The notes below the pieces were generated by a model that saw only the letters and a list, made by a program, of their open reading frames with translations, did no database searches and was not told the origin of the DNA. Of a DNA stretch of 64,000 nucleotides, positions 1,856 through 59,717 are shown one piece after another. The DNA comes from Eledone cirrhosa (taxonomy: Eukaryota). Each line of letters starts with the position of its first letter. The first letter of the stretch is position 1. The DNA lies in assembly GCA_964016885.1 (NCBI GenBank), contig OZ024761.1:14756001-14820000 (forward strand). The letters are read 5' to 3'. A program made the position numbers and the translations under genes.

Positions 1856-3543
<1,688 letters not shown>

Positions 3544-3669: not shown

Positions 3670-4672
3670 AGTTGTTGGTGGTGGTGGTGGTGGTGGTGGT
3701 GGTGGTGGTGGTGGTGGTGGTGGTGGTGGTGGTGGTGTTGGTGGTGGTGTTGGTGGTGGTGGTGGTGGTGGTGTTGTTGTGTTGTTGGTGGTGGTGGTGG
3801 TGGTGGTGGTGGTGGTGGTGGTGGTGGTGGTGGTGGTGGTGGTGTTGGTGGTGGTGTTGGTGGTGGTGGTGGTGGTGGTGTTGTTGTTGTTGGTGGGTGG
3901 TGGTGGTGGTGGTGGTGGTGGTGGTGGTGGTGGTGGTGGTGGGTGTTGGTGTGGTGGTGGTGTTGGTGGTGGTGTTGGTGGTGGTGGTGGTGGTGGTGTT
4001 GTTGTTGGTGGTGGTGGTGGTGGTGGTGGTGGTGTTGGTGGTGGTGGTGGTGGTGTGGTGGTGGTGTTATTGTTGGTGGTGTTGTTGGTGTTGGTGTTGT
4101 GGTGTTGCTGTTGGTGGTGGTGGTGGTGGTGTTGTTGTTGTTGTTGGTGGTGCTGTTGGTGGTGGTGGTGGTGGCGTTGCTGTTGGTGGTGGTGTTGTTG
4201 TTGTTGTTGGTGGTGTTGCTGTTGGTGGTGGTGGTGGTGTTGTTGTTGTGGTGGTGGTGTGCTGTTGGTGGTGGTGGTGGTGTTGCTGTTGGTGGTGGTG
4301 GTGTTGTTGTTGTTGTTGTTGTTGTTGATGTTGGTGGTGGTGTTGTTGTTGTTGTTGTTGGTGGTGGTGTTGGTGGTGGTGGTGGGGGGTGGTGGTTGTG
4401 GTGGTGGTGGTGTTGTTGGTGGTGTCCATGTTGATGGTGGTGGTGGTGGTGTTGTGGTGTTCATGTTGATGGTGTTGTTGTTGGTGGTGGTGGTGGTGGT
4501 GGTGGTGGTGTTGGTGGTGGTGTTCATGTTGGTGGTAGTGGTGATGTTAGTGTTGTTGGTGTTGGTGTTGTCGTTGTTGTTGTTGGTGTTGGTGTTGTTG
4601 TTGTTGTTGGTGGTGGTGATAGTGGTGGTGGTGGTGTTGATGTTGTTGGTATTGTTGGTGATGGTGGTGTTG
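3670..4672. repeat. (GGT)n/(GTT)n degenerate trinucleotide repeat
   Basis: Directly visible. Confidence 0.97.
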
Positions 4673-15844: not shown

Positions 15845-16546
15845 AGACGTACAGAGATAGACAGACAGTCACAGATACATACACAGACAGAGAGACAGAC
15901 TCACACAGACTGATAGATACAGACATACACACACAGACACACTCAGTGACAGACAGATACATACATACACACAGACAGACACACACACAAACACACAGAC
16001 AGACACACACACAGACACACAGACAGTCAGACAGAAACAGAGACAGACAAACACAAGGACAGACAGATACACAGACAGACAAATAGACAGACAGACAGAC
16101 AGACAGGCCGACAGATACACTCACTGACTTACAGACAGACAGAGACACAGACAGACAGACAGACAGACAGACAGAGACACAGACAGACAGACAGACAGAC
16201 AGAGACACAGACAGACAGACAGACAACTACACAGACAGATACACAGACAGACATACACAGACAGATACACAGACAGACATACACAGACAGATACACAGAC
16301 AGACATACACAGACAGATACACAGACAGACAGACAGATACACAAGAGACAGACAGACAGACACACACACAGACAGATACACAGACAGACAGACATACAGA
16401 CATACAGACATACAGACATATAGACAGACAGACAGATACACAAGAGACAGACAGACAGACACACACACAGACAGATACACAGACAGACAGACATACAGAC
16501 ATACAGACATATAGACAGACAGACAGATACACAAGGGACAGACAAG
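15845..16546. repeat. (GACA)n-derived satellite
   Basis: Directly visible. Confidence 0.95.
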
Positions 16547-16778
16547 CAGCCGAGCAATGAGGAGAAGAAGGTGTGGCTGGATGTAAGACTTAGAAGTGTG
16601 TCTATAGATGTAAGTCCTTATGTAGGTAGGGGGCGATGGGGTGGAGGAGACGGGGGGGGGGGGGCACCTTCCCAACCCCCTCCTCGAAACCTTTGGGTGA
16701 CACGTGCACAGCATCATGTACTCCCAGCAGGCTCCTTATTCTCTCTCTCTCTCTCTCTCTCTCTGTCTTTCAATCTCT

Positions 16779-16837
<59 letters not shown>

Positions 16838-16843
16838 GTCTTT

Positions 16844-16897
<54 letters not shown>

Positions 16898-17036
16898 GTG
16901 TCTTTCTCTCTCTCTGTCAATATCTACCTACTTATCTCTCTCTCTCTCCGTGTCTCTGTCTTTCAGTCTCTCTCTCTCTTTCTCTCTCTCTCTATCTCTC
17001 TCTATGCCTCTCCTCCCTCTGTCTTTCTGTCACTCT

Positions 17037-17110
<74 letters not shown>

Positions 17111-17317
17111 GCCAAACAACAATATTTTGTCTCAGAAGTCACCAAAGTTCTTCCCACCCAGGGAGTGGTATTTGCGTCAATGTGTCTCTGTGTGTGTGTG
17201 TATGTGTGTATGAGTAAGTGTCTGTATGAGTGTGTGTGTCTGTGTATGTATCTGCGTGTGTGTGTGTGTCTGTATGAGTGTGTATGTATGTATCTGTGTG
17301 TGTGTGTGTCTGTAGGC

Positions 17318-17351
<34 letters not shown>

Positions 17352-17462
17352 ATGTATGTATGTGTAATTATGTATGTGACTGTATCCGATTATTTTCAGC
17401 TTGATGTGTGTATGTATATGATTATATGATCTATTACGCACGTTTGTGTGTATAATGTGTAG

Positions 17463-17494
<32 letters not shown>

Positions 17495-17638
17495 TATATG
17501 TGTGTGTGTGTCTGTGTGTGTCTGTGTGTGTGTGTGTGTATCATCATCATCATCGTTTAACGTCCATCTTCCACACTAGCATAGGTTAGACGGGAATTGT
17601 CCCACTTGAGGGTGACCGTCTCTCGCTCGTATAGGACA

Positions 17639-17696
<58 letters not shown>

Positions 17697-17897
17697 TTAA
17701 GGATACTATTTATGGTTATGTATATACTAAAACTTTTTATAGTTATATATATTTTAAACCCTAAACAGTGAAGGTCAGTAATTAATTACTACCTTATTAC
17801 CAGTAAGATAAATAGCTCTATGTAATAACATCAGTTGTTCTACAGAGCAGTTATATAGAATTCACAAGAATCAAAGCTATGTTCAAAGCATTTATTG

Positions 17898-17942
17898 ACT
17901 TACAATTGTTTCATCCAAACCTAGGCTTGAAGTCTTCGGAGC
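17898..17942 (-). ncRNA. Hammerhead motif with one core substitution
   Basis: gct CCGAAGA c ttcaagc-ctag-gtttgga t GAAAC AATT GTA agt. 7-bp stem II, palindromic stem III, GUA triplet. Confidence 0.6.
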
Positions 17943-18375
17943 ATTTTTCAATGTTTGTACACATAATTGACCTCCTTTCCAACGCAAGAGAAATACAGAT
18001 ACATATGTATATATTGATGTACAGTGGAGTGACATATATTATATTATATTATTTCTGTATAGCAATTCAAATTCAAAATCAAAATCAAAATTAAAATTAA
18101 AACAAAATTAAAACAAAATTAAAATACATTCGGCAGTTAACATAGATAATGCAAGAGGATAGTTTGTTAGTCAGATGTAGTAGTTATTGTATGTGTTAGT
18201 TACACGTGGGGCATGCACGTGTGTCTCATTTATATATGATTATTGTGTGGCAGGGTGTTACATGTAATAGAAGCACTTTAAGCGGGTAAGTAAGAGTATT
18301 ATGGAGGTTGTAGTGGTAAGGTATTTTTTGTATATAATAAATTCTATATATATATATATATATATACTGTATATA

Positions 18376-18517
18376 TAGGAAAAGAGTCAGGTCACCGACG
18401 GCTGAGCTCCGGCTGTTACGACGGCTAGTTCTGAACTCTTTTCCTGTTACCCATTCTACTACCCCAGGTATCGAGTACTCTGGTGGGCTATGGTCTAGCT
18501 GGTTTTTACCACACCCT
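18376..18517. mobile_element. Family J short element (gacggctgagctc motif) with internal inversion, in (TA)n
   Basis: Related copies at about 21400-21548, 31848-32062, 41464-41655, 42725-43480, 54695-54902, 60170-60240 and 62200-62760. Confidence 0.7.
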
Positions 18518-18518
18518 A

Positions 18519-18688
<170 letters not shown>

Positions 18689-18874
18689 ATAATAATAATA
18701 ATAATAAAATAATAATAGTAATAATAATAAATTTGAAGACTAAAATCCAAAGAGGGCTCGATAAGGATAAATATATATCAAATATATAAGAACCGTAGAG
18801 CATTACTTTAATAAATATATATATATATATATATATATATGGAGAGAGAGAGAGAGAGCGAGAGAGAGAGAGGG

Positions 18875-18905
<31 letters not shown>

Positions 18906-18909
18906 GAGA

Positions 18910-19237
18910 AGTTCTATTTAAATTGTTGGGATACAACAAGAAAATATTTTTATAACTGATATAAAGCACTCAACAAATTATTGGAGTAAAAATACGATAT
19001 ATTAAGAAATGGAAACTATATTTATAAAACCATATTTATTTCATTATAACCCCACTATCCGGGAGCTTCCAACAGAAATGGTCGCATTCTTTAAGGGTAT
19101 GTCAATATTTATTTATAAAACTGCTCTACATTATATTTTATCTGATGAAAGCACACCATAATTTAACTTGGTGTCCTTGAAATATGTATGAAATAAATAT
19201 GGTTTTATAAATATAGTTTCCATTTCTTAATATATCG

Positions 19238-19240
<3 letters not shown>
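18910..19240. mobile_element. Family A remnant with about 52-bp inverted arms and a plus-strand hammerhead (19136-19195)
   Basis: Arms at about 18992-19044 and 19188-19240. CTGATGA at 19142-19148, stem II acacca/tggtgt, GAAA at 19179-19182. Confidence 0.7.
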
Positions 19241-19316
<76 letters not shown>

Positions 19317-19814
19317 GCTAACTCGGTTGAAGTTCTATTTAAATATTGATTTCTAGCTTCAACCTCTTCACCACACCGCCATCACTACCACTAACACCAC
19401 CACCTCTACCACCATCACCACCAGCACCACCACTACCACCATCAACACCACCACTAACACCTCTACCACCACCAACATCACCGCCACCATTCCCACCACC
19501 ACCTACATCACCACCAACATCACCGCCACCACCACCACCATGAACACCACTACCATTCCCACCACCACCAACATCACCGCCACCACCATGAACACCACTA
19601 CCATTCCCACCACCACCAACATCACCGCCACCACCACCACCATGAACACCACTACCATTCCCACCACCACCTACATCAACACCACTACCATCACCACCAC
19701 CACTACCATCACCACTACCATCACCACCACCACCACTACCACTACCAAACCACCATGGAGCAATCTATAACTTCAATTTTCTAATTAAGATATTACTATC
19801 TAACTCATTAACTA

Positions 19815-20015
19815 AGGCTGGTACTCCGTCGGTTACAACGACGAATAATCTAGCTGATACAGCCTGCTCTTGAAATTAAAGTGAATGTGTTTGAACATCC
19901 CACAGGCAGGCGCATTCTTAACGTAATTCTCAGGGAGATTCAGCGTTACACAGAATGTAACAAAGCTGCCCCCTTCCACTGAGTAGACTGGAGTAACGTG
20001 AAATAAAGTGTGTTG
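19815..20015 (+). mobile_element. Dispersed SINE-like repeat (cttaacgtaattctcagggagattcagcg family)
   Basis: Same motif three times in tandem at about 24580-24900, and reversed at about 27000-27075. Confidence 0.65.
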
Positions 20016-20069
20016 ACCATATCTCCATATTTTACGAGGGATCAAATTTGGATGAGTTTGAAGATATCG

Positions 20070-20480
20070 TTGTCCTCCGGTATTCGTGGGGGATTACCGC
20101 GAATATTGGACGTGGTTAAAATATAACGTAAAATATAATGGTTTCTTATATAGTCACAAGGCCAGCAATTTTGGAGGCCAGGGAAAGTCAATTAAATCGA
20201 CACCCAGTGCATGACTGGTACTTTATTTTATCGACCCCGGAAGGATGAAAGGCAAAGTTATCCTCGGCGGGATTTGAACTCAGATCATAAAGGGCCGTAA
20301 CTCTATGCTGCAAATATATATATTGCCACGAAGAAAGCTATTTAAAAAATCGCGGAAGATATTTACGATTCCGCAAATATGCGGTGGTTTCCACGAACAA
20401 TTATTAGTTAGGTTCTAAGGAAAATACCGCGAATAACCGGAACCGCGAATGCTGGGGTCGTGAATTCCGGGGGTACACTG
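20070..20480. mobile_element. Tigger/pogo-type MITE interrupted by a SINE (about 20150-20312)
   Basis: Repeated ccgcgaata/tattcgtgg subterminal motifs. Right end gggggtacactg followed by TA. Left end degraded. Confidence 0.5.
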
Positions 20481-20519
20481 TATATGTGTGTGTGTGTGTG
20501 TGTGTGCGTGTGTGTGTTG

Positions 20520-20893
20520 ATGTCCATGGTTTAACATGCGAAATCTGTAACAGATTCTGCTTCAGCAAGTCTAGTAAAAAAAAGGTCATCTTCGCAGTAA
20601 TGAATGGTAGAGCTCCTGCCGATTACAAAATCGCCATGGCCGGAAATACGACATACATATGCAGACCCTGTGGCAAAGATTGCAGGTGTGCTGGCGGCCT
20701 AATAAGGCAGATTAAAGAGCATAATGACCCTTAAGGAGCCAATAATGTTATATCGAGAGCATTGCACACCTGCCAACTTTGTGTAAAACACTGATACTTC
20801 CAGGCCTAAAAAGTCATATCAGTTTGCAGCACCCTCATGTCTTTGTGTGGGTGCTGTTTGATAGCCATACCCGATCACGGGGTGACTTCCAAC
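20520..20893 (+). mobile_element. 3' end of RTE-like LINE with repeated C2H2-like motifs
   Basis: LTCEICNRFCFS, YICRPCGKDCRCAGGLIRQIKEH and TCQLCVK..GLKSH, then a hairpin tail and (TA)n. Confidence 0.6.
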
Positions 20894-20920
20894 ATATATA
20901 TATATATATGTACATATATA

Positions 20921-21030
20921 TCTAGGGCGGGTAAAATTCCTGAGATCCATTGACGAGATCTCTCCAGCGGTCTCTGTCCTTCATCCTCGCCGCCATATCC
21001 TGCGTCTCCAAGAAAGGAAGGAGGCAGAGG
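20921..21030 (-). mobile_element. LINE C-terminal fragment (DRxxWR motif)
   Basis: Minus strand translates to ETQDMAARMKDRDRWRDLV, typical of RTE-type ORF ends. Confidence 0.5.
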
Positions 21031-21075
21031 AGTTGATGCAGGAGGTGGGGACTGTGTCGATGAGTGTGGGGCTGA

Positions 21076-21145
<70 letters not shown>

Positions 21146-21340
21146 TTTAGTACACCATAGACGAAGCTCTAGTATACGGCCAAGCTAGCGTGTATGCTTA
21201 TTCGGTTTGTAGCTTTAGCACTCATATGAGGTAAGACCCCAGAGTATAACATTATGTTCAGACAGCTTAGCAAATTAGATATTGCAGTCGGCAGTCCGAC
21301 CGCATCACTAGAGCAACGAAAATACAGGACCCAGGTAAAG

Positions 21341-21405
<65 letters not shown>

Positions 21406-21576
21406 ACTCAGGACCCCGACGGCTGAGCTCCGGCCGTTTCGACAGCCATTTCTGAACGACTCTTTTCCTATTACCCACTCTACTACCCATAGTATCGAGT
21501 ACTCTGGTGCGTTATGGTCCACCTGGTTTCTTACCACACTTGCTTCGTTATATATATATATATATATATATATATC

Positions 21577-21607
<31 letters not shown>

Positions 21608-21665
21608 GCATGTGTGTATAAATCTGGGCTTTTCGAATGTTAACAATAATATTCGATTCGTTTGC

Positions 21666-21719
<54 letters not shown>

Positions 21720-22131
21720 AGTATAGAAATTGTTGTAGCGAGAAGCCAACAGTATTCCATAATATATAAGTGACTATAGCGTCAAAATGGGAAAATAGTT
21801 AACATAAGATATGGGAAAAATAATTCAAACTCAATTCAAAAGGAATCAGGATATAGATTTATCCAACAGAATTTAGAGAAATCCATTGAAAAATCAATAG
21901 AGCCTTAACTCATGATAAAACAAAGTCTAAAGTACTCATCCTTCAATTTGGGACAACTTCAAATGCTCTGTATAGTCTTGAAAAGACTATTTCACGAAAA
22001 CTTTCAGTGGGGATGGTCACGGTTGGATTTCGTTCATCAGCAGAGCTCAACATGGTAACCAAGGTCTCACTGATTAATATGCCAAAAAGGGAATTTAAAA
22101 GCAGGCTAGTTTAACATCATGCGTGATTATG

Positions 22132-22163
<32 letters not shown>

Positions 22164-22319
22164 ATGTGTGTGTGTGGTGTGGGTGTGGGTGTGAGTGTTT
22201 TCCATGCTCTTGATTACGATTAAGCGAATGCAATATTTTATTCCCCACACCCATTCCAAAATAAAATGTATGATTTTATTCTGATTGATATTATTATTTA
22301 TTATCGATATGAAATTAAT

Positions 22320-22775
22320 TGGAAGGTGTGAGGGAAATATAAGTATGTTGATGGTTGCGCCAACCCTTACCTATGGTCAAGAATCTTGGATATTGACCAA
22401 AAGGATAAGATTGCAAATATAAGCGACTGAAATAAGGTTTTTCCAAAGTGTCTTTGGAATAACTGTTTCTACTTTTGGCACAAGGCCAGCAATTATCCCA
22501 GTGCATTACTGGTACTTTATTTTATCGACCCCGTAAGGATGAAAGGCAAAGTTAACCTCGGCGGGATTTGAACTCAGAACGTAAAGGGCCATAACTCTAT
22601 GCTGTAAAGCATGGTGTCTGACGCTCTACCGATACTGCCAATTCACCGCCCTTGTGTCTTTGGAATAACGTTACTCGATCTGGTGCCTAGCTCGGAGATC
22701 AGAGAGTAGCTCCAGGGAGACCCACTTCTCCGAATTGAGAGAACGAAGCTCCAGTATTATGGACATGTGATTGGA
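22320..22775 (+). mobile_element. RTE-clade LINE fragment split by a SINE
   Basis: With the SINE removed: VAPTLTYGQESWILTKRIRLQI*ATEIRFFQSVFGITLLDLVPSSEIRE*LQGDPLLRIERTKLQYYGHVI. Confidence 0.85.
22464..22653 (-). mobile_element. Full tRNA-derived SINE (family 1) with 16-bp target-site duplication
   Basis: TSD gtgtctttggaataac at 22448-22463 and 22654-22669. A/B boxes present, with central gcctttcatccttacggggtcgataaaataaagtaccag (Meta-domain-like). Confidence 0.93.
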
Positions 22776-23069
22776 ATAGCTAAGATAAGAATCGAGAGAT
22801 GGGGAGGGCGAAAGAGATGGAGGCGATGACGGTGGGAGTTCGGCTCTTCTGTGTTCGAACACATTGCACCCGTCATGTGGGTCATATGCATGACATACAT
22901 ATATACCTACCTACATAATAGTTGATGTTTAAAAAAAACACAACTCTAAAGTATTCACAAAGGCGTCTACGTTTAGTGAATCGGTAAAAAATAATAATAA
23001 TAATTATTATAAGGAACGGATTGTTTTATTTCTGAACAAAAAAGAAAAGGAAAGGAAACGGGAGGCAGT

Positions 23070-23222
23070 AAATAAATTAAAAAGTAAATAAATTAAGAAG
23101 TAAATAAATCAAAAGGTAAATAAATCAAAAGGTAAATAAATCAAAAGATAAATAAATCAAAAGGTAAATAAATCAAAAGGTAAATAAATCAAAAAGTAAA
23201 TAAATCAAAAAGTAAATAAATT
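23070..23222. repeat. 16-bp AT-rich tandem repeat (aaataaatcaaaaggt)
   Basis: About 9 units, directly visible. Confidence 0.9.
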
Positions 23223-23394
23223 CTATCAACATAATCGTAATCAACAGCTTGGAAAATGTATTTCTGCAAAATTTTATTTAAAAAAATATGTATTATTAGG
23301 AAAATTATGAAGAAACGAAATTGGGAGAGGAGGGAGGGGGAGTAGGAGGGGGAGGGAGGAGTGGGTAATGGCAGGAAACTGTTGTTATGACTAT

Positions 23395-24372
23395 GTGAGT
23401 GTGTGTGTGTATGGTGAGAGGGGGCTAAGTGTGTGTGTCTATGGTGAGAGGAGAGGTGAGTGTGTGCGTATGGTGAGAGGAGAGAGGTGTGTGTCTATGT
23501 ATGGTGAGAAGGTCTAAGTGTGTGTGTGTGTGTGTGTGGTGAGAGGGAGCTAAGAGTGTGTGTGTATGTATGGTGAGAAGGGGCTAAGTGTGTGTGTGTC
23601 TATGGTGAGAAGGGGCTAAGTGTGCGTGTCTATGGTGAGAGGAGAGGTAAGAGTGTGTGTCTATAGTGAGAGGAGAGAGGTGTGTGTCTATGTATGGTGA
23701 GAAGGTCTAAGTGTGTGTGTGTGTGTGTGTGTGTGGTGAGAGGGAGCTAAGAGTGTGTGTGTCTATGGTGAGAGGAGAGGTGTGTGTGGTTGTATGGTGA
23801 GAAGGAGCTAAGAGTGTGTGTGTATGGTGAGAGAGGGGCTACGTGTGCGTATGTATGGTGAGAGGGGGGGTGTATGTATGGTGAGAGAGGGGCTAAGTGT
23901 GTGTGTATGGTGAACAAGAGGAGAGGTGTGTGTGTGTGCTTGTGTGTAAGGTGAACAAGAGAAGAGGTGTATGTGTATGTGTGTGTGTGTATGAAAGGTG
24001 AACAAGAGGAGAGGTGTGTGTGCGTGTGTGTGTGTAAGGTGAACAAGAGAAGAGATGTATGTGTATGTGTGTGTGAAAGGTGAACAAGAGGAGAGGTGTC
24101 TGTGTGTGTGAAAGGTGAACAAGAGAAGAGGTGTATGTGTATGCGTGTGTGCGTGTGTGTGTGTAAGGTGAACAAGAGAAGAGGTGTATGTGTGTGAGTA
24201 TAAGGTGAACAAGAGAAGAGGTGTATGTGTATGTGTGTGTGTGTGTGTATAAGGTGAACAAGAGAAGAGGTGTATGTGTATGTGTGTGTATGAAAGGTGA
24301 ACAAGAGAAGAGGTGTATGTGTGTGTGTGTATGAAAGGTGAACAAGAGGAAAGGTATATGTGTGTGTAAAGT
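23395..24372. repeat. (TG)-based minisatellite with motif turnover along the array
   Basis: atggtgagaggag/gctaag units give way at about 23910 to aaggtgaacaagagaagagg units. Confidence 0.92.
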
Positions 24373-24497
24373 GACTAAAAGTGCATGTGTGTGTGTATAA
24401 TGGGAAAGAATGCGACTATGTGTATGTGTAAGGTGAGCAATCGAGGTGAATGTGTGTTTAAGACGAAATGGAGAGAGAGAGGGAGGGTGAGAGAGGG

Positions 24498-24540
<43 letters not shown>

Positions 24541-24978
24541 TGAAAGAGAGCAGAGTGAGAGGGATAGGGAGAGTGTGTATTTCACAGACGTGTATACATT
24601 ACGTAACGAAATCTCAGGGAGATTCAAGAGAGAGTTCGTGACAAGGCTGACCCTTACAATTTCAGGTATAGTACATATTGTAACAGTTTAATTGGTTGAG
24701 TATTCTACACAGACACGTGTACCCTAAACGCAATTCTCAGGGAGATTCAACATAAAACAGCACATGTCAAGGGTTTCCCTCTGAATTACAGGTACAGCCA
24801 ATTTTGTAGTATAGTGTAATTGGTTGAGTATTCTGCACAGACACGTGTACCCTATACGTAATTCTCAGAGAGATCCAACATGACACAGCGCGTTACATGA
24901 CTGACAGTAAAATTGTACCCTTGCCCAGGCTTATGTGAGTAATAATTTATATAAATGGTTTAAAGGGTTCCTACTTAA

Positions 24979-25345
24979 CCCATTAGCATGTAAACCGGCC
25001 GTACCCGGCCAGAATTCTCTCACCTCTTTCTGTTCAAACCAGCTGTAACCGGCAGCTCATACTGATGTTAAGGTGCTGTTCTCAAAATAGATAATATCAA
25101 AATCTCATAGATTCGATATTATGAGAGATAATTATGTGAGGTAAGGCCTTTACCGTGAAAATACAATAGTATATACAGAGTAATGTAAATGTTATATGAG
25201 ATAATTATGTGAGGTAAGGCCTTTACCATGAAAATACAATAGTAAATATAGAGTAATGTAAATGTTATATGAGATGATTATGTCAGGTAAAGCCTTTACC
25301 ATGAAAATACAATAGTATATATAGAGTAATGTAAATGTTAAAGGG
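24979..25345. mobile_element. piggyBac-type MITE with an internal 73-bp triplication
   Basis: TTAA|CCCATTAGCATGTA...TAAATGTTAAAGGG|TTTA. Homologous (reversed) to 45343-45546 and 51342-51553. Confidence 0.75.
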
Positions 25346-25399
25346 TTTATGATCCAATCATCGTAGTGCTTCTCAGCCATCTTATTGTCGTATGATATA

Positions 25400-26338
25400 T
25401 GCACATTGGTTAGAGAGACAGATTGAGATTGGAGAGCTAGGCTAAGGCACCATTTTCGGCATTAAGGATTGCCTCCAGGCCACCAGGAAAATGTCCGCTG
25501 GAGCAATCCCGAACAACATGCAGTACTGTCTGGTCAGGGTCCCCAAAGTCACATACTGGACTGTCTTTCATTTCCCATCGATGGAGATGATGGTCTGTCT
25601 TGGCATGGTTTGGACAGATCCGATTAAGGGACACCAATTACTTACTAGGAAGGTCAAAGCCGACTGGACAGAAGTCAAAGCCGGCTGGACAGATCCGACC
25701 AAGGAACACCAATTACTTACTAGGAAGGTCAAAACCGACTGGTTTAGATGTAGGGTCCTGGTTGATGTCTTGGTTGGCAAATTTGGACTCATTCCATGAT
25801 CTTCGCCACTCTTCTTTCAGATCAAAGTTATTGTCTTGAAGGGTCTTCATTGGTTTCCAGAATGGTGTGCGTGAATACAAGCACATGTTGGGAAAGTTTT
25901 CTAGGTCTTCGTGGATGGGAAGGTCAAACTTTGACTCAGTAATAAGTGCTGTTTCACGGATCATCTGCTGTGAGAAGGAGCTATATGAGAAAGGGTAGGC
26001 AGCCACTGAGTAGGTGCAGATTTCGGTGTACCAGATACTATTCTCATTGCTGAGTTGAAGATAGTTGTTTCTATTATTGGGACAAGGCCAGCAATTATAC
26101 CAGTACATTACTGGTACTTTATTTTATCGACCCCGTAAGGATGAAAGGCAAAGTTAAACTCGGCAGGATGAAGATTGTGTCAACTTGTTAGGCTTGGCAG
26201 CTCCCTGCTCAAACCGGTGAACAGTACTCTGCAACTGAATATGCAAGTGCTATGCTAAGCACGCAGTTCAGAGCATGTGTGCATCAAACCCACAGCTCTT
26301 TCCTGCCAACTTGCAGATCGTATTAATCCTAGTCTCAA
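25400..26338 (-). mobile_element. Decayed Ingi/Vingi-like LINE 3' portion, interrupted by a SINE
   Basis: TRINTICKLAGKSCG...LAYSVAEYCSPV, PVGFDLP..VSLNRI, HLHRWEMKDSPVCDFGDPDQTVLHVVRDC (CCHC-like knuckle). Internal duplication at 25611/25685. Confidence 0.78.
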
Positions 26339-26650
26339 ATAATTGTTTCTACTTTTGGCACAAGGCCAGTACATTACTGGTACTTTATTTTATCGACCCC
26401 CGTAATTATGAAAGACAAAGTTAACCTCGACGGGATTTGAATTCAGAATGGCAAAGGCCGTAACTCTGTGCTACAAAGCATGGCGTCCGACCCTCTACCG
26501 ATACTGCCAATCAACCAATGATAAAAGACTGATCATACAATTAAAGAAGTTTCTTTTTTCACTCTCTGACGCTTGCTTATCTGACTTTAATAGAAAGTGT
26601 TTCTAGTCCAAATGGTACACGTGTCTGTAGAATGCTCCTCCCATTCACAC

Positions 26651-26685
<35 letters not shown>

Positions 26686-27165
26686 CTCTCTCTCTCTCTC
26701 ACACTCACACATACTCTCTCTCACACACTCACACATACGCTCACACACGCACTCACATACACTCACTCACACACACACTCACACACACACTCACATACTC
26801 ACACTCACTCACACACACACAGTCTCTCTCACACTCACACATACTCTCTCTCACACACACATACGCTCACACACTCACACACACACACTCACATACACAC
26901 ACTCACACTCACACATTCACACACTCACACACTCACTCACACACACCCACTCACTCACATACACTCACACACACACACTCACTCACTCACACACACTCGT
27001 TAATTTCATGAGTCGGCTGTCCCATTGATCGATCCGCTGGAACACTCATCGATGAAACCGACGGAAGACCAGTTCCGTTTGCAAACCGGAAGGAATATAA
27101 AAGGCCAGACTATACCGGAAGTAATCTCTCTCCCTCTCTCTCAATATCCCCCACTGTCATGGCTA

Positions 27166-27648
27166 GATGATGGTGGTGGTGGTGATGGTGGTGATGGTGA
27201 GGGTGTTGGTGGTGGTGATGATGATGGTGGTGGTGGTGGTGTTGGTGATTATGGTGATGATGGTGGTGGTGATGATGGTGGTGATGGTGAGGGTGGTGGT
27301 GGTGGTGGTGGTGATGATGGTGGTGATGATGGTGGTGAGGGTGGTGATGGTGATGGTGATGATGATGGTGATGGTGTTGGTGATGATGGTGATGGTGATA
27401 GTGATGATGATGATGGTGGTGGTGTTGGTGATGATGGTGATGGTGATGGTGGTGGTAGTGGTGATGATGGTGATGATGATGGTGGTGGTGGTAGTGGTGA
27501 TGATGGTGATGATGATGGTGGTGGTGGTAGTGGTGATGATGGTGATGATGATGATGGTGGTGGTAGTGGTGATGATGGTGATGATGATGGTGGTGGTGGT
27601 AGTGGTGATGATGGTGATGATGATGATGGTGGTGGTGGTGGTGATGAT
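27166..27648. repeat. (GGT/GAT)n trinucleotide repeat
   Basis: Directly visible. It explains the poly-G/D, poly-H and poly-V/M ORFs. Confidence 0.96.
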
Positions 27649-28540
27649 AGAAACAGCAGCAAGCAGGCAACAGTTAATGACCCGTAACGTAAGAGGTGTG
27701 TGGGTGGAGGCGGCGGCGGAGGAGGAAGGAGGTGGAGGGAGTACAATACTATAGTACAAATGGTGGTGGCGGTGGTGGTGGAGACGGGGCTGCAAAGATA
27801 TTATCACGTGACTTATTAAAAAACGTGAACAAGGGTCAAAGATGGTGGGTGGATGAATGGAGGGAGGTTGGTGAGTGGATGAGTGAGGGGGGAGTAGAGG
27901 ATGAGTGAAGTTTGTGTGGATCATTGAGAGGGAGTGGATGAGTGAGGGGCGAGTGGATGAGTGCGGGGGAGTGGATAAGTGTGTGTGTTTGGGGGGGGGT
28001 GCTTGTGGATGTGAGAGTGAGGGGTGGTCGCGAGTGGATGTGAGAGTGAGGGGTGGGGGTGAGAGGATGAGTGTGTGTATGTTGTGGTGGAGGGGGGTTT
28101 GATGAGTGGATGAGTGAGGGGAGGGGGGGTCGAGTGGATGAGTGTGGTGGGATCGCGAGTGGATGAGTGTGTGGTGGTGTGGGGCGATAAATGTGTGTGT
28201 ATGGTTGGGGGGTCGCGAGTGGATGTGTTAGGGGTGGGGTGAGGGTGGGCGGTATTGGTGGGGGGGGGGAGCGTGTGTGGTGGGGTGCTAGTGGATGAGT
28301 GAGGCAAATACTTTTATGCCATCAGAACACACACAAAAACAAGGGGTGGGGGTGGGGGGATTTCAATAGAACTTTTAGGGGGCAACAGGAGGAAGGGGTT
28401 TACAATATAAGAGGGATAGGGGTAGAGAGAGAGCCTCGACGGGGGAGGGAGCAAAGAGCAATCAACAGCTTTCATGTATTTTTACACTTCAATGACGGAA
28501 CAACTGAAAGTCTGTCTGTAGGCAGTACCCACTCTCTCTC

Positions 28541-28587
<47 letters not shown>

Positions 28588-28952
28588 GTCTCTCGCTCAC
28601 TCTCTCTCTCTATCTCTCTCTCTCTCTCTCTGTCTGTCTCTCGCTCACTCTCTCTCTCTATCTCTCTCTCTGTCTGTCTCTCGCTCACTCTCTCTATCTA
28701 TCTATCTATCTATCTATCTGTCTATCTATCTGTCTATCGGTCCCCTCTCTACAACACCCCCCCTTTCTCTCATCACACACGCCGCCACCCCACAGTTATT
28801 CGAAGCCACATTCAAACAAACATTTTAACATACACACACACTTATATATAGACATATTTATACATACATGCATACATATTCATTCATTCATACAAATACA
28901 TACATATGTACACTCATACATACATATATATACATACATACATACATACATA

Positions 28953-29200
28953 ATTATTGGAGCTACGGGTTATACACCAACCCGCTTGGACAAATATATA
29001 ACTGAACTTGGATTTGCGGACAAAGAGCGCAGCTCCCTAATTCATAGTCTACAAATGGCTGCGATAGCTGGCACCTTTAAAATTTGCAAAACATTCTTGC
29101 GATTCAAGGGATGACAATTTCTTTTCTTTTACAACCTTTCCACCAGGAAGGTGGCCGGTCAAAAATATACTCGAAAGTAAGAGAAAGAGATAACATACAT
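28953..29200 (+). mobile_element. 3' end of an R4/NeSL-like restriction-endonuclease non-LTR element in a (TACA)n tract
   Basis: IIIGATGYTPTRLDKYITELG...LQMAAIAGTFKICKTFL matches the C-terminal pattern of RLE-type ORFs. A short 3' UTR follows. Confidence 0.65.
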
Positions 29201-29231
29201 ACGTACATATGTACACTCATACATATATATA

Positions 29232-29655
29232 TGGTGGCTGCCAACTCGTTTTCGAGTACGGCCACTACTTTATATCCATGTAGGAGAACCCCTACCGATG
29301 CGCTGAACGAGTGCGACTTTTTAGTCCAGCCAGCGACTTGAAAACTCTGGTACAAACACTACACTTGTGACAATTATTGACACATAGTGCTGGGCCCATG
29401 GTACCATGTGACGACAAGTGCAGAGAGATCTCCAGATATAAAGCAATGTCTGTGCCGTGAAGCTTTTATAGTGAGCAAAGGCACTTCACAAAGCCATTCC
29501 CACTCTCTTAACCAAGATGATATTTACCAAAAAGAAGAACAAGTCAACATCATTGGATACCATCTTAAGAGTCAATGGCCATCCAAAATCACTGGGAGAG
29601 ATGACCCCTTAGCCTTTGTCAAGGCAGAATTCTAGAAGGAAAACTCTGATATAAC
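29232..29655 (-). mobile_element. Second copy of the 4781-5248 element with an inverted 5' segment
   Basis: 29232-29564 is the reverse complement of 4946-5248, while 29565-29655 matches 4840-4933 in the same orientation. Confidence 0.85.
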
Positions 29656-29676
29656 ATACATACATACATACATACA

Positions 29677-29707
<31 letters not shown>

Positions 29708-29715
29708 GTGTGTGT

Positions 29716-29762
<47 letters not shown>

Positions 29763-29974
29763 TTAGAATAGCCTAAGGGCCGAGAGAACTTAGTCTTGTG
29801 AGAAGAGTTTCTAATGTGCTTTATTTTTGCCCTTGTGGCAACTAAAAGACCATCATCATCATCATCATCATCACCACTACCATCATCACCACTACTACCA
29901 CCACCACCATCATCATCATCGTCGTCATCATCATCACCACCTCCATCACCATCATCATCATCATCATCATTATA

Positions 29975-30826
<852 letters not shown>

Positions 30827-31804
30827 ATCATCATCATCCTCTTCATCATCATAATCCCCCTCATCATCATCATCATCATCAAAAACCTCTTCATCATCAT
30901 CATCATCATTATATTCCCCCCCCCCTCCTTCTCATCATCACGATCGTCATCATCATCATCTTTCACTTAATCATCATCGTCATCTTCATTGGCACTTTTC
31001 GAAGTTTTGTGGTCTGACAAACAGTTAAGAAATAGACCGGAGAGGGTGATTTGAGGGTGATTTGGCTGCTACATCTAGGAAGATTTGTGGCCTGACAAAC
31101 AGTTATGGAATATACCGCGTAGGGTGATTTAAGGGTGAATTAGCTGCTATATCGTGGAAGAGTTGTAGCCAAATTTATGGGTGATTAAAGGGATACTTGG
31201 AATTTATTACAATACAAAATATCCAGTAGTAAAAAAAAAACACACACACCAAAACTACGATATATATAACATAAGGAAACAATAAAAGGGAGGGGGAATA
31301 TGTATTGAAAAAGAGGAAGGAAAAAAAGAGAGAATTAAGCAAAGAAAAAATGGAAGTGAGGTAGATTTGACTGCTATTTCTGGAAAGACTTGAGACCAGT
31401 CAGCTCATCTGTCACTTCTAAAAGATATAATTTTGGTAGTTAAACTAATTTCCTGCGAGTTCGTACGTGATGTTTTCAGAGCTTGGGCTTCTTGTTATGG
31501 TCGTCTGCTGTTTAGCAAACGTCATTGTCGTCTCAGCATTGAAATGGGTCAGAGGTCGTTGTCTTAGTTAACAATGTGGGTCAGAGGTAAAAGGTCACTG
31601 TGGTAGTGAAGAGGGTGAGAGGTCAGCTACTAGAACATTCCTTTGATAGGGACTTGCTAGAAGATGTCTTCCTTTTTGTTTAGACATCATTAGACATCGC
31701 ACAGACACACAGACACATACACACACACACACACGTACACATACACATACCCACCCACACACACACATATATATATATGTCTATATTTATCTCTCTCCCT
31801 CCAC

Positions 31805-31849
<45 letters not shown>

Positions 31850-32099
31850 GGAAAATGTTTGACCCCGACGGCAGAGCTCAATCCGTTTCGACGGCTATTT
31901 CTCTGCCGTCGGGGGTCAAACATTTTCCTATTATCCACTCTACTACCCTAAGTATTGAGTACTCTGGTGCGTTATGGTCCATCTGGTTCCTTACCACACC
32001 TCCTTCGTTATATATGTCGAAACGACCGGAGCTCAGCCGTCGGGGTCCTGACTCTTTTCCTATATATATGTGTGTGGGGGTGGGGGGTAGATAGATAGA

Positions 32100-33222
32100 T
32101 AGAGAGATAGAGAGTTATAGAGAAAGTATGCGTTGCTGAGCCCGAGGAGACCACTAATCGTGAGTACTCGATACATGGGGAGATGTAGAGTGGGTATAGA
32201 AATATGTAAAATCTCGACCGCGGCGCCAAACGGTTTCGGCTTGTGTGCGTTTTGTCTTGTGGAGGGTTGTGGGTTTATACATTTCTCTGTGTCTTCCTAT
32301 GTTTTTCTTTTATGTGTCCAAATATGTCCTTAGTCGATTGATTCTGTGATGAGGTGTACTATTCCATTCATGTTTTCTTTTGAAGTTTGCTCTCCTCTCT
32401 ATTATATGAGTGACCCCTGTCATTGTCTGAGTGTCGTGTGAGTTCTATGTGTGGATAGGATCTTTACTTCAATGTTATCTATTGAGCCTTGCCATCTATA
32501 TTCTAGCTTGCTTTAACAAATAGAAGACATAAACAGACTCATTAACTGCTTACTGAACACAACCACAAGAATATGGTCCGAACGTGGAAGAGCCGAACTC
32601 CCACTGTCATCGCCTCCATCTCTCTCGTCCTCCCCATCTCACCGTATGGTGAGCAAATGGGGTCCCACGTGCTGGCCTCCCCACAGCCCCGGCGGACAGA
32701 ATGGAGAAGGCGTTTCCCCGGAGGACGGCAAGGGAGATGCGCTGGAAGAGCCATTCCAACTCGTGAGGTTCACACCTGCGGCTGGCCAACTCAGCGCCTA
32801 TGGTGGTGAGTAGGGAGGTAGCTCTAGGGCCGAGGACACCAGAAGTCTCCACTGCCAAGGGCACGACCGCGAACCTGTCGGAGAGCGACCGGTACTTGGA
32901 GAGTTTGGGCCTCCTCAGCCTCACGTGCAGCAGAACCTGGATTAGTCGCAGACTGCACCAGGTTGCGGCTGGAGAAAGTGTCGCTGCAAGTGGCATCCCA
33001 GACGAGGGGTTCGCCACCGCGGAACGGGAAGATGGTCATACCGTCTGGCCTTTTGCCATCCCCTCGGTCCAGCCCCACCGGCTCGAGCTGGGAGGGGAAG
33101 CCTGCAGCGTCCAAGCCATGCTTTATAACCTCGTTGAGGGCAGCATGGCGTGGAAGGCGGCCGGCACTGAGGTCACAGGAAAGCGGATGGAAGCCGAAAG
33201 AGTCCACGGTGGATCCACAGCG
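32100..33222 (-). mobile_element. 5'-truncated CRE-like non-LTR retrotransposon: zinc-knuckle remnant, restriction-like endonuclease, 3' UTR
   Basis: HPLSC...RHAALNEVI...LEPVGL...GKRPDGMT...LVWDATC (32824-33207), then after one frameshift KY...PLAVETSG...LFQRISLAVLRGNA (to 32607). The tail ends in (TATC)n. The extent of the 3' UTR is inferred. Confidence 0.85.
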
Positions 33223-33375
33223 ACATTTGTGTGCTTGCTATGTTGGTATAGCACTGATGAGGGTTTGTCCTCTTTAAGTTCTCGCCAGTGTTACTTCAAT
33301 CCCTCTCCTATACTACGGCGATGTTTCTCATATGTATGTCGTTGTCTTATTTCTGCATCATCCCTTTGTACACCT

Positions 33376-33566
33376 TATCCTACAGACAGCGTTCCTAGTT
33401 TTGCAGTAAAGAATTAGCGTGGTAGAAAAGCCAGGAATTGCCATAAAATCCCTGGTCAGTAGAACATACCCTTTAAAGAAAACTCTGCTGTATTGATAGT
33501 AACTGTGTAGTGTGTAAAGTAAGCCCGTAGGTGAACTACAAAACTAGGAATGCAATCTATAGGATA
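33376..33566. mobile_element. MITE-like element with about 30-bp imperfect terminal inverted repeats
   Basis: tatcctacagacagcgttcctagttttgcagt ... actacaaaactaggaatgcaatctataggata. Confidence 0.6.
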
Positions 33567-33571
33567 GGACG

Positions 33572-33690
<119 letters not shown>

Positions 33691-33731
33691 GATATTAAAC
33701 AAATGGAAACTATATTTATAAAACCATATTT

Positions 33732-33794
33732 ATTTCATTATACATATTTCAGGGATACCATATTAAAAATATGGCATGCCTTCTTCAGATAAAA
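33732..33794 (-). ncRNA. Type I hammerhead ribozyme (family A)
   Basis: ttttat CTGAAGA aggca tgccatatt-ttt-aatatggta tccct GAAA TATGTA TA atgaaa. Confidence 0.7.
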
Positions 33795-33884
33795 TACAAT
33801 ATATAAGCAGTTTTATAAATAAATTTGACATACCATAGAATATTGATCAACTTCCATTTAAAAAAGTTGGTTTGGTTTATATAT

Positions 33885-33921
<37 letters not shown>

Positions 33922-34356
33922 GAGATAAATCCACCAATTAATGGTAGGGTCTAAGCCGTATGAAGAACTCAATGTAATCCGTATGTAGAAGATGTCGTGA
34001 AGCAAAGTTTAAAATACAAAATTTCAACGATATAATTCATTGGATACAGAGTCAAAAATACAAATAGTGAAAACAATGAAATTAAACAAAAAACGGTTAA
34101 TTCATAGTAAAACTCATTATTTTACGATCGTTTCTGGGGGGTAGTTCTCCGTATGTCCATTCTATTATTGATCTATGTAAAACATATTCCTAATTATCAT
34201 AGTAAGAAAATATCCATACGTCTTCTCTACCCGCCGTCTTCAGAAAATCAATAATAGAATGGACATTCGGGGAACTACCCTCCAGAAACGATCGTAAAAT
34301 AATGAGTTTTACTATGAATTAACCGTTTTTTGTTTAATCTCATTGTTTTCACTATT

Positions 34357-34361
<5 letters not shown>
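33922..34361. mobile_element. Family C element with 115-bp inverted arms and a long-stem-II hammerhead on the minus strand (34116-34248)
   Basis: Arms 34058-34172 and 34247-34361. Minus strand: ttt CTGAAGA [102 nt; gggtag/ctaccc and cgtatg/catacg pair] GAAAC GATC GTA aaa. Confidence 0.78.
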
Positions 34362-34428
<67 letters not shown>

Positions 34429-34477
34429 TATCCCGGGTTCACAGTAAGTAAGGTACTCAATACATAGCAGAGTATAA

Positions 34478-34620
34478 ATATTTAATTTAGAAATGGCTTC
34501 AACAGGACTATAACTGTTTCATTCGGGAGAAATCATCAGGAAGCCCCGATGATTCTTCCTAATGATTTTTCCCGAATGAAACAGTTCTAGTCATGTAGAA
34601 GCCATTTCTATATTAAATAT
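34478..34620. mobile_element. Fold-back remnant with two opposed degenerate hammerhead motifs
   Basis: Minus: CTGATGA tttctcccgaat GAAACAGTTA (34511-34539). Plus: CTAATGA...GAAACAGTTC (34559-34587). Confidence 0.6.
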
Positions 34621-55067: not shown

Positions 55068-55913
55068 TTGTGTGGTTCCCAGCCACTAATATCATCCATT
55101 GTTCAGTATTCAGTACTAACTAACATTAACTGACCTCTATAATCAATTCTTCTCTCTCCAACCACCTCTCTCTCACTATCTCTCTCCACCTCTCACTCTC
55201 CCCACCTTGCTAAAAATTGCTATTAGTCATAATTAGCACTGCCTTATAAACCAGAATGTGTGTGTGTGTGTGTGCCAGGGCTGGTTGAGAATAGGTACAC
55301 CAGATCCTTGTGTGTTGTAAGTGGTTGCTGAAAGGGTTGGTTTAGAATAGCTACACTCTGTCCTTGTGTGCTGTAAGTTGCAATAAAAACTAAAGTGGTT
55401 AGTGCCAAGAAAGGTATTGTGCTGTAAAACAGTCTCAAAACATCCCGTCTAACCCATGCTAGCATGGAAAAGTAGACATAACGATGATGATGATGATGAT
55501 ATACATATGGCTTAGTGGTTAGAGCATTGGCCTTGCAATCGAAAGGTTGTGAGTTCAATTCTCAGACCGGGTGATGTGTTGTATCCTTGAGCAAGACACT
55601 TTATTTCACATTGCTCCAGTTTACTCAGCTGTAGAAATGAGATGATAGGGACTGGGGTCCCTATCATTCCACTGTAAAGAGGTCGTGGAGGTGCCACGGC
55701 AAAAAAGCACCCAGCACTCACTGTAAATGAGGTTGGTGTGAGGAAGGGCATCCAGCTGTAGAAATCAAGCCAGCATCAGTTCCCGTCCCACCCTTGCAAG
55801 CAGGGAAAAGCGGACGTAAAATGATAAGATATATACATACTTCACCATGGGTTGGATGTTCATGGCCACCGGCATATTACAATGATTGCATAACTGCACC
55901 AATGATTGTGTAA

Positions 55914-55964: not shown

Positions 55965-56009
55965 AATAAACAATTATGGTGATTTAACCTCGTCTTAACT
56001 ACCATTATA

Positions 56010-56190
56010 ATTGGCAGTATCGGTAGAGGGTCAGACGCCATGCTTTCCAGCACAGTTACGTCCCTTTACGGTCTGAGTTCAAATCCGGTCGAGGTTAACT
56101 TTGCCTTTCATCCTTACGGGGGTCGATAAAATAAATTAACAGTAATGCACTGGGGTAATTGTTGGTCTTGTGCCAAAAAGTAGAAACAAT
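56010..56190 (+). mobile_element. Family-1 tRNA-derived SINE
   Basis: Same motifs as 22464-22653. Further copies at 57023-57210, 61748-61850 and 63668-63943. Confidence 0.9.
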
Positions 56191-56255
56191 TATTTAATAT
56201 ATATATATGTATATAGTATAAGAATAAAGGAACAAAGAATCAGTGTTGCATCATA

Positions 56256-56347
56256 ACATATTACATATGTTTCACTGTCGATCAGCTCGAGGAGCGATCT
56301 ATTATTGATTGAACCTGACTCTGGAATCGAAAGATCCTCAGATATGC
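56256..56347 (-). ncRNA. Type I hammerhead ribozyme with 61-nt stem II region
   Basis: gcatat CTGAGGA tctttcgat...atcgacagt GAAAC ATAT GTA atatgt. 6-bp stem I, GUA triplet. Confidence 0.8.
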
Positions 56348-56404
56348 CGTAGTATGTAAGCTCGCCTCTGATTTTGTGCGAATATCTCCAGTACTTTGTT
56401 ATAT

Positions 56405-56440
<36 letters not shown>

Positions 56441-56446
<6 letters not shown>

Positions 56447-56997
56447 TGGATGAATACTTCAACAGGTACTATGTACTTGTAGAAATATGCAAGTTGTTTA
56501 TAATATTTGTGGTTCAATGGTACTAATTTCAGATACCAGAACAATATAAAAAGAGCGGAGCAAGCGGTTATCAAACAATTCTCTAAATAAATTAAAAAAA
56601 CGATTTAAATAATCACCTGTTCTATTGCTGTTACCGACGGTTTCACCATTCCAAAAATTGGAAATCCAGAGAATTTCCAATGGAAAGAAATGGATCTTCA
56701 GACAGCTTATTTCCATACTATAAGGTTGCCAGCCTTACAGCAAGTAAATATTTCGCTTCCTGCCCAACGCATGCGGTCAAGCCGTTAAAATGACACACAC
56801 GCAAAATCAGGTCGCAGATAATAGCTGTTTATTATAAACGTGTTGATATTGCCACTAAAATTAGCAGCATTATTCAACGTTTTGTTCTCTACATAAGGAG
56901 AAAAATTATAAAAGTGGATGAATACCTCAACAGGCACTAAGTACTTGTAGAAATATGCAAGGTGTTTATAATAGTTGTGGTTCGATGGTACTAATTT
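56441..56997 (-). mobile_element. Retrozyme-like / pLTR-like partial tandem (468-bp period) containing a hammerhead
   Basis: 89-bp direct repeats at 56441-56529 and 56909-56997 flank the ribozyme. Confidence 0.75.
56627..56706 (-). ncRNA. Intact type I hammerhead ribozyme, best example in the window
   Basis: gctgt CTGAAGA t ccatttc...ttggaaat-tctctgg-atttccaa...ggaatgg t GAAA CC GTC GG TA acagc. 5-bp Watson-Crick stem I, long stem II, 3-bp stem III, GUA site between 56632 and 56631. Confidence 0.88.
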
Positions 56998-57457
56998 ATC
57001 ATCATCATATATATATATATAAGGGTGTGAATTGGCAGTATCGGTAGAGGGTCGGACGCCATGCTTTCCAGCATAGTTACGTCCCTTTACGATCTGAGTT
57101 CAAATCCCGCCGAGGTTGACTTTGCCTTTCATCCTTACGGGATCGATAAAATAAAGTACCAGTAATGCACTGGGTAATTTGCTGGCCTTGTGCCTAACGT
57201 AGAAACAATCATATATATATATATTGATAAAAAAAACAGGAAGTTATATTCTTAGTAAGTAGAGCATTCAGCCCAAAGGATGAGTTTGGTATAGAGTAAG
57301 TGCCACAACAGATGAGCAAACCTTACTCATGGACACGTGTTTGACCAGAGAGATTTTCAATTTATGTAAGGCTGTAACTGCCACCATATACAGGTTGAAA
57401 ATTTGTTCTGTGGAACACCTGTCCTCGAGTATAATTTGCTAATTTATTGTGGACTAA

Positions 57458-58355: not shown

Positions 58356-59717
58356 ATGTATATATAAATATATATGTGTATATATATATGTATATATAAA
58401 TATATATGTATATATGTGTATATATAAATATGTATGTTTATATATATATATGTATGTATAAATATATATGTGTATATATATATATGTATGTATAAATATA
58501 TATGTGTATATATATATGTATGTATATATAAATATATATGTATATATGTGTATATATAAATATGTATGTTTATATATATATATATGTATGTATATATAAA
58601 TATGTATGTTTATATATATATATATGTATGTATATATAAATATATATGTATATATAAATATATATATATCATCATCATCATTTTTATGTCCGCTTTTTCC
58701 CTGCTTGCAAGGGTGGGACGGGAACTGATTCTGGCTTGATTTCTACAGCTGGATGCCCTTCCTAACACCAACCTCATTTACAGTGAGTGATGGGTGCTTT
58801 TTTGCCGTGGCACCTCCACGACCACTTTACAGTGGAATGATAGGGACCCCAGTCCCTATCATTTCATTTCTACAGCTGAGTAAACTGGAGCAATGTGAAA
58901 TAAAGTGTCTTGCTCAAGGAAACAACACATCACCCGGTCTGAGAATTGAACTCACAACCTTTCGATTGCAAGGCTAATGCTCTAACCACTAAGCCATGTG
59001 CCTCCATGTGTATATGTATATAAATATGTATGTATATATATATATAGATACATACATATATAAACATGTTTTAAAGGTATATTCTCCTTTGTAATCATTC
59101 CACTTGTAACTGCTCTACTTATATTCTCGGCCACTAGATATTAACACTTCTAATATTTAGCCCCGTAGGCACAAGTATGGAGCACATATGCACAAGCCAT
59201 TGGCAACTAACTATATGTTTCACTTATCTCATCTTCTCTCTCTCGATACTTAAATATTCTATCATCATCATTATCATCATCATCGTTTAACGTCCATCTT
59301 CCACGCTTGCATGGGTTTGGACGGGAGTTTTCCCACTTGAGGCAAGAGTGGTTGTCTTGCTCGTATAGGACTGTCTGGCGGGTTTTCTACGGCTGGATGC
59401 CCTTCCTAACACCAACCACGTTACAGTGTGGACTGGGAGGTACCGTGTTACCTACCTACACGGCCACATTACTGCGTGGACTGTGTGTTTTTTTGTCGTG
59501 ACACCTACACGACCTCATTTATTTAGGACTGGATGTTGTGGTACCAACATAACTTTACATTGAAAGGGGTGGTGTAGATGGGGTGGGGGTAGTGGGACGG
59601 GGGTGTATTTTTGTTAGAGCTGTCTACTGACTGTAGTAGGTTTCACTTTGTACTTAGGTAAGGCGGGTCTTCTGTATTACTGTGTAGCGCCAAAGATCTC
59701 GGTCCAGTGACATTGTC

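Follow-up and report, generated by a model that had tools for sequence, protein, structure and literature searches.

What kind of element is a short, apparently non-coding insertion with a hammerhead motif in a cephalopod genome, and from what template was it copied? [quoted passage not shown] Retrozymes are reported to derive from PLE pLTRs and to be non-autonomous, the active ones being loci with two hammerheads (10.64898/2026.07.22.740005). The initial annotation of the locus had offered a retrozyme and a Penelope pLTR as alternatives. Since retrozymes are reported as PLE derivatives, the two overlap and the choice is largely a false one.

The locus lies in a window of 64,000 nucleotides, the whole stretch of DNA analysed here, whose AT-rich, animal-type sequence is dense in microsatellites and in SINE-like repeats that presumably resemble octopus SINEs, a likeness for which a motif search of the literature gave no match. 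Two SINE-like families, each with many copies in the window, flank it (56009-56196 and 57027-57209 for one, 55504-55842 and 58656-59000 for the other). The insertion has the following parts:

56441..56997, minus strand: complete insertion, amounting to 1.19 repeat units of 468 bp; left edge anywhere from 56439 to 56443
56907..56997, minus strand: direct repeat at the sense 5' end, with 6 differences from the other copy
56439..56529, minus strand: sense 3' direct repeat, whose terminal TATA merges with the (TA)n target
56400..56442, no strand assigned: (TA)n run on the sense 3' side, the likely target site
56998..57021, no strand assigned: (ATC)3 followed by (TA)n on the sense 5' side, where a target-site duplication is not distinguishable

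The left edge is ambiguous because TATA, the first four bases of the repeat, overlaps the (TA)n run. The direct repeats 468 bp apart that had been annotated are indeed present, at 56439-56529 and 56907-56997, each 91 bp long and 85/91 identical (93%). GC content of the unit is 35.5%, and no further copy of the insertion occurs elsewhere in the 64,000-nt window. The TA tract looks like a hot spot for insertions. The insertion has its 5' end where the repeat has its inner edge, inside a local hairpin that is modelled only across the unit junction (56519-56538 and 56997, minus strand); reverse transcription could stop there preferentially.

Within the unit, the hammerhead, designated HHR1, is laid out as follows:

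56627..56706, minus strand: type I hammerhead HHR1, in whose helix I 56706-56702 pairs with 56631-56627
56695..56701, minus strand: catalytic core C3-A9, CUGAAGA, with C3 at 56701
56645..56694, minus strand: helix II, a U10.1·U11.1 mismatch, 7 bp and then an 11-bp hairpin; 10.2-11.2 is C-G here and U-A in relatives
56633..56641, minus strand: helix III, 9-nt near-palindrome (4+1+4), whose formation is predicted in a dimer
56632..56634, minus strand: GUA triplet, predicted cut 56632/56631

Both core strands, CUGAAGA and GAAA, are intact, and HHR1 combines the elements of a type I hammerhead core (CUGANGA, GAAA and NUH, with helices I-III). The perfect core with GUA claimed in the initial annotation therefore stands, with the triplet at 56634-56632, and dinucleotide shuffling of the 559-bp element, repeated 5000 times, never produced a match to the hammerhead descriptor. 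With a palindrome-based descriptor the window yields 2 motifs and 100 local shuffles yield none, and the 90-nt HHR1 region folds with a z of -3.07. Rfam gave no match at all over the window at the gathering score; its 11 matches at E<=10 were at chance level, with the hammerhead family absent. Three matches to a looser descriptor, at 34539, 33788 and 22040, were removed by the palindrome filter; the last of them (22040-21971, minus strand) has helices of 6/6/7 pairs with G-U allowed.

The description of the motif as having three well-formed stems proved overstated: helix II begins with a mismatch, U·U, and a stable helix III is predicted for the dimer alone. Helix I, of 5 bp, is predicted with pair probabilities of 0.82-0.97. 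In a monomer, helix III would consist of an A-U and two C-G pairs closed by a 3-nt loop, with a predicted probability of 0.012 for A15.1-U16.1, and the active HHR1 fold is predicted to cost 3.8 kcal/mol in the monomer, where it is not expected to be stable. The self-duplex of the helix III segment is predicted at -11.3 kcal/mol, and metazoan hammerheads have been described as built in this way, with a palindromic helix III that works as a dimer (PMC4209133). Folding a single unit as a circle gave a z of -4.95 on the hammerhead strand (0/60 shuffles) against -1.47 on the other strand (7/60). As linear tandem RNA would fold much alike, these values support a role at the RNA level and not circularity as such.

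Only one hammerhead lies within the 1.19 units of the insertion, a point that the initial annotation does not make. With a single cut site in the window copy, release of a monomer by its own transcript is impossible, and this copy is a dead end for monomer production. A second motif lies nearby:

56257..56346, minus strand: HHR2, second hammerhead motif, with C3 at 56341, A at H17 (56262), U·U at the base of helix II and a perfect 8-nt palindromic helix III

HHR2 lies 370 nt downstream of HHR1 on the same strand and has the same build, with a predicted cut after 56262. It sits in a separate stretch of ~180 bp (about 56219-56399), across the (TA)n run and ~45 nt from the next TA-rich run. Its active fold costs 17 kcal/mol, misfolding is predicted, and on this modelling HHR2 has likely decayed. 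Most simply, it is the truncated 3' end of another PLE-type element in the same target. A two-hammerhead cassette made of HHR1 and HHR2 was set aside on three grounds: the fold cost of HHR2, the (TA)n between the two, and their unrelated sequences, BLAST of HHR1 against the HHR2 stretch having given no significant match.

That the insertion holds no convincing ORF, as had been proposed, was upheld by Pfam, phmmer and searches for Hydra motif patterns. The longest frames inside the element have 55-78 codons, and an ATG at 56649, in helix II, opens a frame of 14 codons only. Pfam, run on five of the seven frames of the locus, gave a single match at E=0.79. A phmmer search with the 74-aa frame against 1.84 billion proteins returned three matches, all to internally repeated proteins with summed weak stretches, and the 78-aa frame had no match among longer proteins, which is weak evidence. 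The motif patterns of Hydra proteins are absent from the six frames of 56200-57010, and the combination that marks an autonomous Hydra-clade PLE (RWK, DKT, CxCx5C, RT and GIY-YIG) is not found at the locus. Across the window, no Pfam family was detected in the 19 of 58 long frames scanned, and most of the other frames fall by position in simple repeats. A search with a 19-nt motif found five loci in metagenomes, none with an upstream CUGANGA or wider likeness. Two scans of viral contigs gave no match, and prokaryote genomes gave one, within a 303-codon frame, where ~2 are expected by chance.

Public sequencing runs place the insertion in a family. Part of the stretch is contained in 7 of 10 listed public runs (4 studies), none of them recorded as RNA, and the family counts below are drawn from four of the ten (X1, X4, X5 and X8) at 80% likeness. 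Run X1 holds 400 contigs on the stretch (119 at 99% or more, 132 at 95-99, 83 at 90-95 and 66 under 90%), X8 holds 7525 reads, X4 nine contigs and X5 four, so that the element is multi-copy in these runs, as a non-LTR retrozyme should be. One X1 contig has a depth of 2014.6, against 8-91 in the other seven X1 pieces among those listed. We infer that the data suggest on the order of a hundred near-identical copies of the dominant variant, summed contig depth not being the same as copy number.

Two of the runs bear on how the unit ends. X5 record 16, of 486 nt, extends from ~56836 to 56911 and then through 56444-56865, its ends overlapping by 30 nt; judged from these coordinates, it closes an unbranched loop of 456 nt. 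It shares indels with the dominant X1 variant. X4 record 9 joins 56902 to 56444 and continues to 56551. Being unbranched, the loop speaks for a closed unit, and not for an ORF end, in the dominant variant, although such a de Bruijn loop can also come from collapsed dispersed copies of 1.x units and does not by itself prove arrays. Among the 21 pieces (of 416) and 22 loose ends (of 201) that were listed, no record has two hammerheads.

Variation within the family touches the hammerhead in an informative way. A compensatory change, 56693 G>A together with 56646 C>T, converts a C-G pair of helix II to U-A. The first substitution accounts for 4830 of a depth of 8950 in X1 and for 2672 of 3402 reads in X8, the second for 7703 of 11174 and 300 of 455, respectively. 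Both occur together in one class of eight X8 reads, in which helix II is far shorter. Helix II covaries within the family, which points to selection on the fold. Relatives with G10.1 and C11.1 are present among the loose ends listed (22 of 201).

Further records bear on individual copies. In X5, one contig terminates in (TA)n at 56569, which is 63 nt beyond the cut site. X8 behaves as a double-digest library, with reads that start with GCATGC at 56769 and end at AATT sites; being restriction fragments, its starts, its ends and most of its loose ends are uninformative on the ends of the element. X4 record 13 (56616-56997) belongs to a 1256-nt contig that is ~97% like the window copy and extends 885 nt beyond 56997 without a tandem join, and is either the same locus in another individual or another copy with a near-identical 5' end. 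X1 and X8 share an organism code, and the pattern of the depth-2014.6 X1 contig is found in ~80-94 of ~3200-3500 X8 reads, against 1135-1315 for a sister pattern; this difference in the dominant indel variant may reflect recent amplification specific to an individual or a population. X5 record 19 (56653-56702) is a relative with G10.1-C11.1 and GUC, and is flanked upstream by what resembles the family's downstream tail in reverse complement, suggesting either that helix I is very long or that the 5' end is inverted.

How does this family compare with known elements? Like metazoan non-LTR retrozymes, it has a non-coding unit of a few hundred bp (468 bp here) with GC under 50% and no LTR, PBS or PPT apparent, a type I hammerhead, many copies and a self-paired circular fold. 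Its ~460-nt unit lies slightly above the 150-450 bp range of retrozymes (PMC7229834), and the window unit differs from them in its very long helix II and in showing no evident contact between loop 1 and loop 2. A U·U at the base of helix II is likewise found in the axolotl HHR_Amex2, which works better as a dimer (PMC7229834), and 450-bp hammerhead repeats in up to 85 tandem copies in D. willistoni provide a precedent for the unit size (PMC4209133 supplement). Active retrozymes are recognized by at least two consecutive hammerhead-bearing units at a locus (Li et al.), whereas the 1.19 units at this locus contain a single hammerhead; the copy in the window derives from the family and is not itself an active retrozyme. 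The retrozyme reading of the initial annotation thus fits the family, which is multi-copy and ORF-less with a conserved hammerhead and a closed unit of ~456-468 nt, and falters on the copy in the window with its one hammerhead. This is a real hammerhead motif in a repeat family of retrozyme type, probably mobilised by a PLE and Hydra-like.

The hammerhead build and the target site both bear on the identity of such a helper. The 3' hammerheads of Hydra-clade PLEs share with HHR1 a CUGANGAU...UGAAA core, a near-palindromic 4+1+4 helix III and, often, an A at the cut (PMC8557442). Tallying File S2 of that paper (25 Hydra-clade families in 26 rows, one family appearing twice), we found helix II to begin with U·U in 14 of the 25, helix III to be 4+1+4 in 16 and the cut site to carry an A in 11. 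Nearly all Hydra families have (TA)n as their insertion target, and a family from Octopus bimaculoides is listed in the clade (PMC8557442). The window copy has both the Hydra-like build and the (TA)n target, features that are not exclusive to the clade: Naiads likewise target (TA)n, and, by our reading, a U·U seems to occur in the D. willistoni PLE motif (PMC4209133 supplement). Because U·U and (TA)n occur outside Hydra, the clade is the best match to the sequence features of the hammerhead and its target, and is not thereby proven to be the helper.

Differences from the Hydra clade are also plain. In contrast to Hydra-clade PLEs, the window unit is without an RT or GIY-YIG ORF, closes at ~460 nt and has a much longer helix II. 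The hammerhead of Hydra-1_oBim differs from HHR1 in sequence, and six short motifs, five of them from the window, had no match in that supplement (PMC8557442). From the cut to the 3' end there are 191 nt, against ~35-150 nt worked out for 5 of the 25 Hydra families (PMC8557442). HHR1 also resembles the minimal hammerheads of Penelope, Poseidon and Neptune pLTRs in its 5-bp helix I, long helix II and palindromic, dimer-type helix III, and departs from their consensus in having no bulged base after A9, no G10.1-C11.1 and a longer helix III (PMC4209133). Judged on these features, the minimal consensus fits HHR1 less well.

The anatomy, the family, the conserved and covarying hammerhead, the closed-unit join, the (TA)n site and the lack of ORF homology are what we observed. 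On balance we lean towards reading the insertion as a single-hammerhead copy, 1.19 units long, of a multi-copy non-coding family of ~456-468 nt that is likely a non-LTR retrozyme copied by PLE enzymes, probably of the Hydra clade. Head-to-tail master copies elsewhere would be transcribed; two hammerheads, joined by their palindromic helix III, would cleave behind GUA to yield RNA of unit length, to be closed by a host ligase; a PLE endonuclease would nick a (TA)n target, and the PLE reverse transcriptase would start ~190 nt 3' of the cut and go once round the unit and 91 nt further. That initiation can be internal, downstream of the hammerhead, has been shown for an Anolis PLE (PMC11167929). 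Several results weigh against the reading: no autonomous PLE partner was found, the unit and its distance from cut to 3' end exceed the ranges given above, X4 record 13 extends 885 nt beyond 56997, and the repeats carry 6 differences in 91 positions, whereas one pass round a circle gives identical repeats at insertion, so that either age or a linear template must account for them.

The repeat differences lead to the strongest rival, under which the same closed unit and PLE helper are at work but the template is an uncleaved linear head-to-tail transcript, its 1.19 units being the result of 5' truncation. The 1.2-unit shape, taken in the initial annotation as the mark of a circle, does not require one, as such a transcript gives the same. 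The hammerhead would then be retained for another step or would need a PLE protein, and circular RNA would not accumulate. Six differences in 91 could be those of neighbouring units in an array, helix III is weak in the monomer, and 8 of 9 Xenopus dimers remained uncleaved, a single one being cleaved in vitro (10.64898/2026.07.22.740005). In the Anolis PLE the RNA used is unprocessed and the hammerhead is assisted by protein; insertion in vitro did not depend on cleavage, and the RNA-seq data reported there had no reads that end at the cut (PMC11167929). These Anolis results and the repeat differences keep a linear template a strong rival, although we hold it to be clearly the less likely of the two. 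It sits less easily with the conserved core and the covarying helix II of the family, with the strand specificity of the circular fold (though linear tandem RNA is expected to fold almost alike), and with the coral, mussel and axolotl units of this kind, all of which yielded circles (PMC7229834).

A more distant prospect, which we consider improbable, is that the stretch is the 3' end or the partial-tandem pLTR of an autonomous PLE, most of its homologues being joined to an RT-endonuclease ORF. Both the hammerhead build, which is Hydra-like, and the (TA)n target would suit it, as would the summed X1 depth, which peaks near the hammerhead (16000-34600 over 56576-56689, 2300-4000 over 56709-56746) and could mean that this part is common to more families. 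Five opposite-strand joints in X8 (3-10 reads and two starts each) resemble PLE 5' inversions, and only 22 of 201 loose ends were among those listed. Set against this, the sequence upstream of the hammerhead re-enters the 3' part of the unit itself and meets no ORF, the dominant variant closes on itself in X5, and neither Hydra protein motifs in the six frames around the locus nor Pfam or the protein library lend support. A local, DNA-level duplication of 91 bp that made a single-hammerhead element mimic a partial tandem at this one locus, conceivable in an unstable cluster of microsatellites and SINEs, is largely refuted and very improbable, as the join of 56902/56911 to 56444 recurs in ~5-10% diverged variants from two other runs, one with another organism code.

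Returning to the retrozyme reading, elements of this kind are already known from corals, mussels, insects and vertebrates. We found no paper on a cephalopod retrozyme in searches that covered titles and the starts of abstracts, with subscription literature mostly outside their reach and with the supplement of PMC7229834 possibly listing cephalopods; equivalent searches of the literature on octopus repeats and on non-autonomous elements of the Hydra clade likewise found none. A repeat annotation of O. vulgaris describes recently active Penelope families, and its main text has no mention of ribozyme, hammerhead or retrozyme (PMC13282606).

In its fullest form, which we put forward only tentatively, the proposal is of a cephalopod retrozyme family whose dominant variant is still homogeneous, whose hammerheads cleave as dimers to give a circular RNA of ~460 nt, and which is mobilised into (TA)n by a Hydra-clade PLE. 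If true, it would be the first cephalopod retrozyme and the first pairing of a retrozyme with Hydra, as far as the literature searched goes; retrozymes would extend to a further host lineage, with the Hydra clade indicated as helper. Circular RNA has been proposed as the template of PLE partial tandems (PMC4209133) and found no support in vitro for the Anolis element (PMC11167929). With its short closed unit, dimer-type hammerhead and many dispersed copies, the family is a handy test of circle against linear template, and it would, if the proposal holds, allow a direct test of whether the partial tandems of PLEs are copied from circles.
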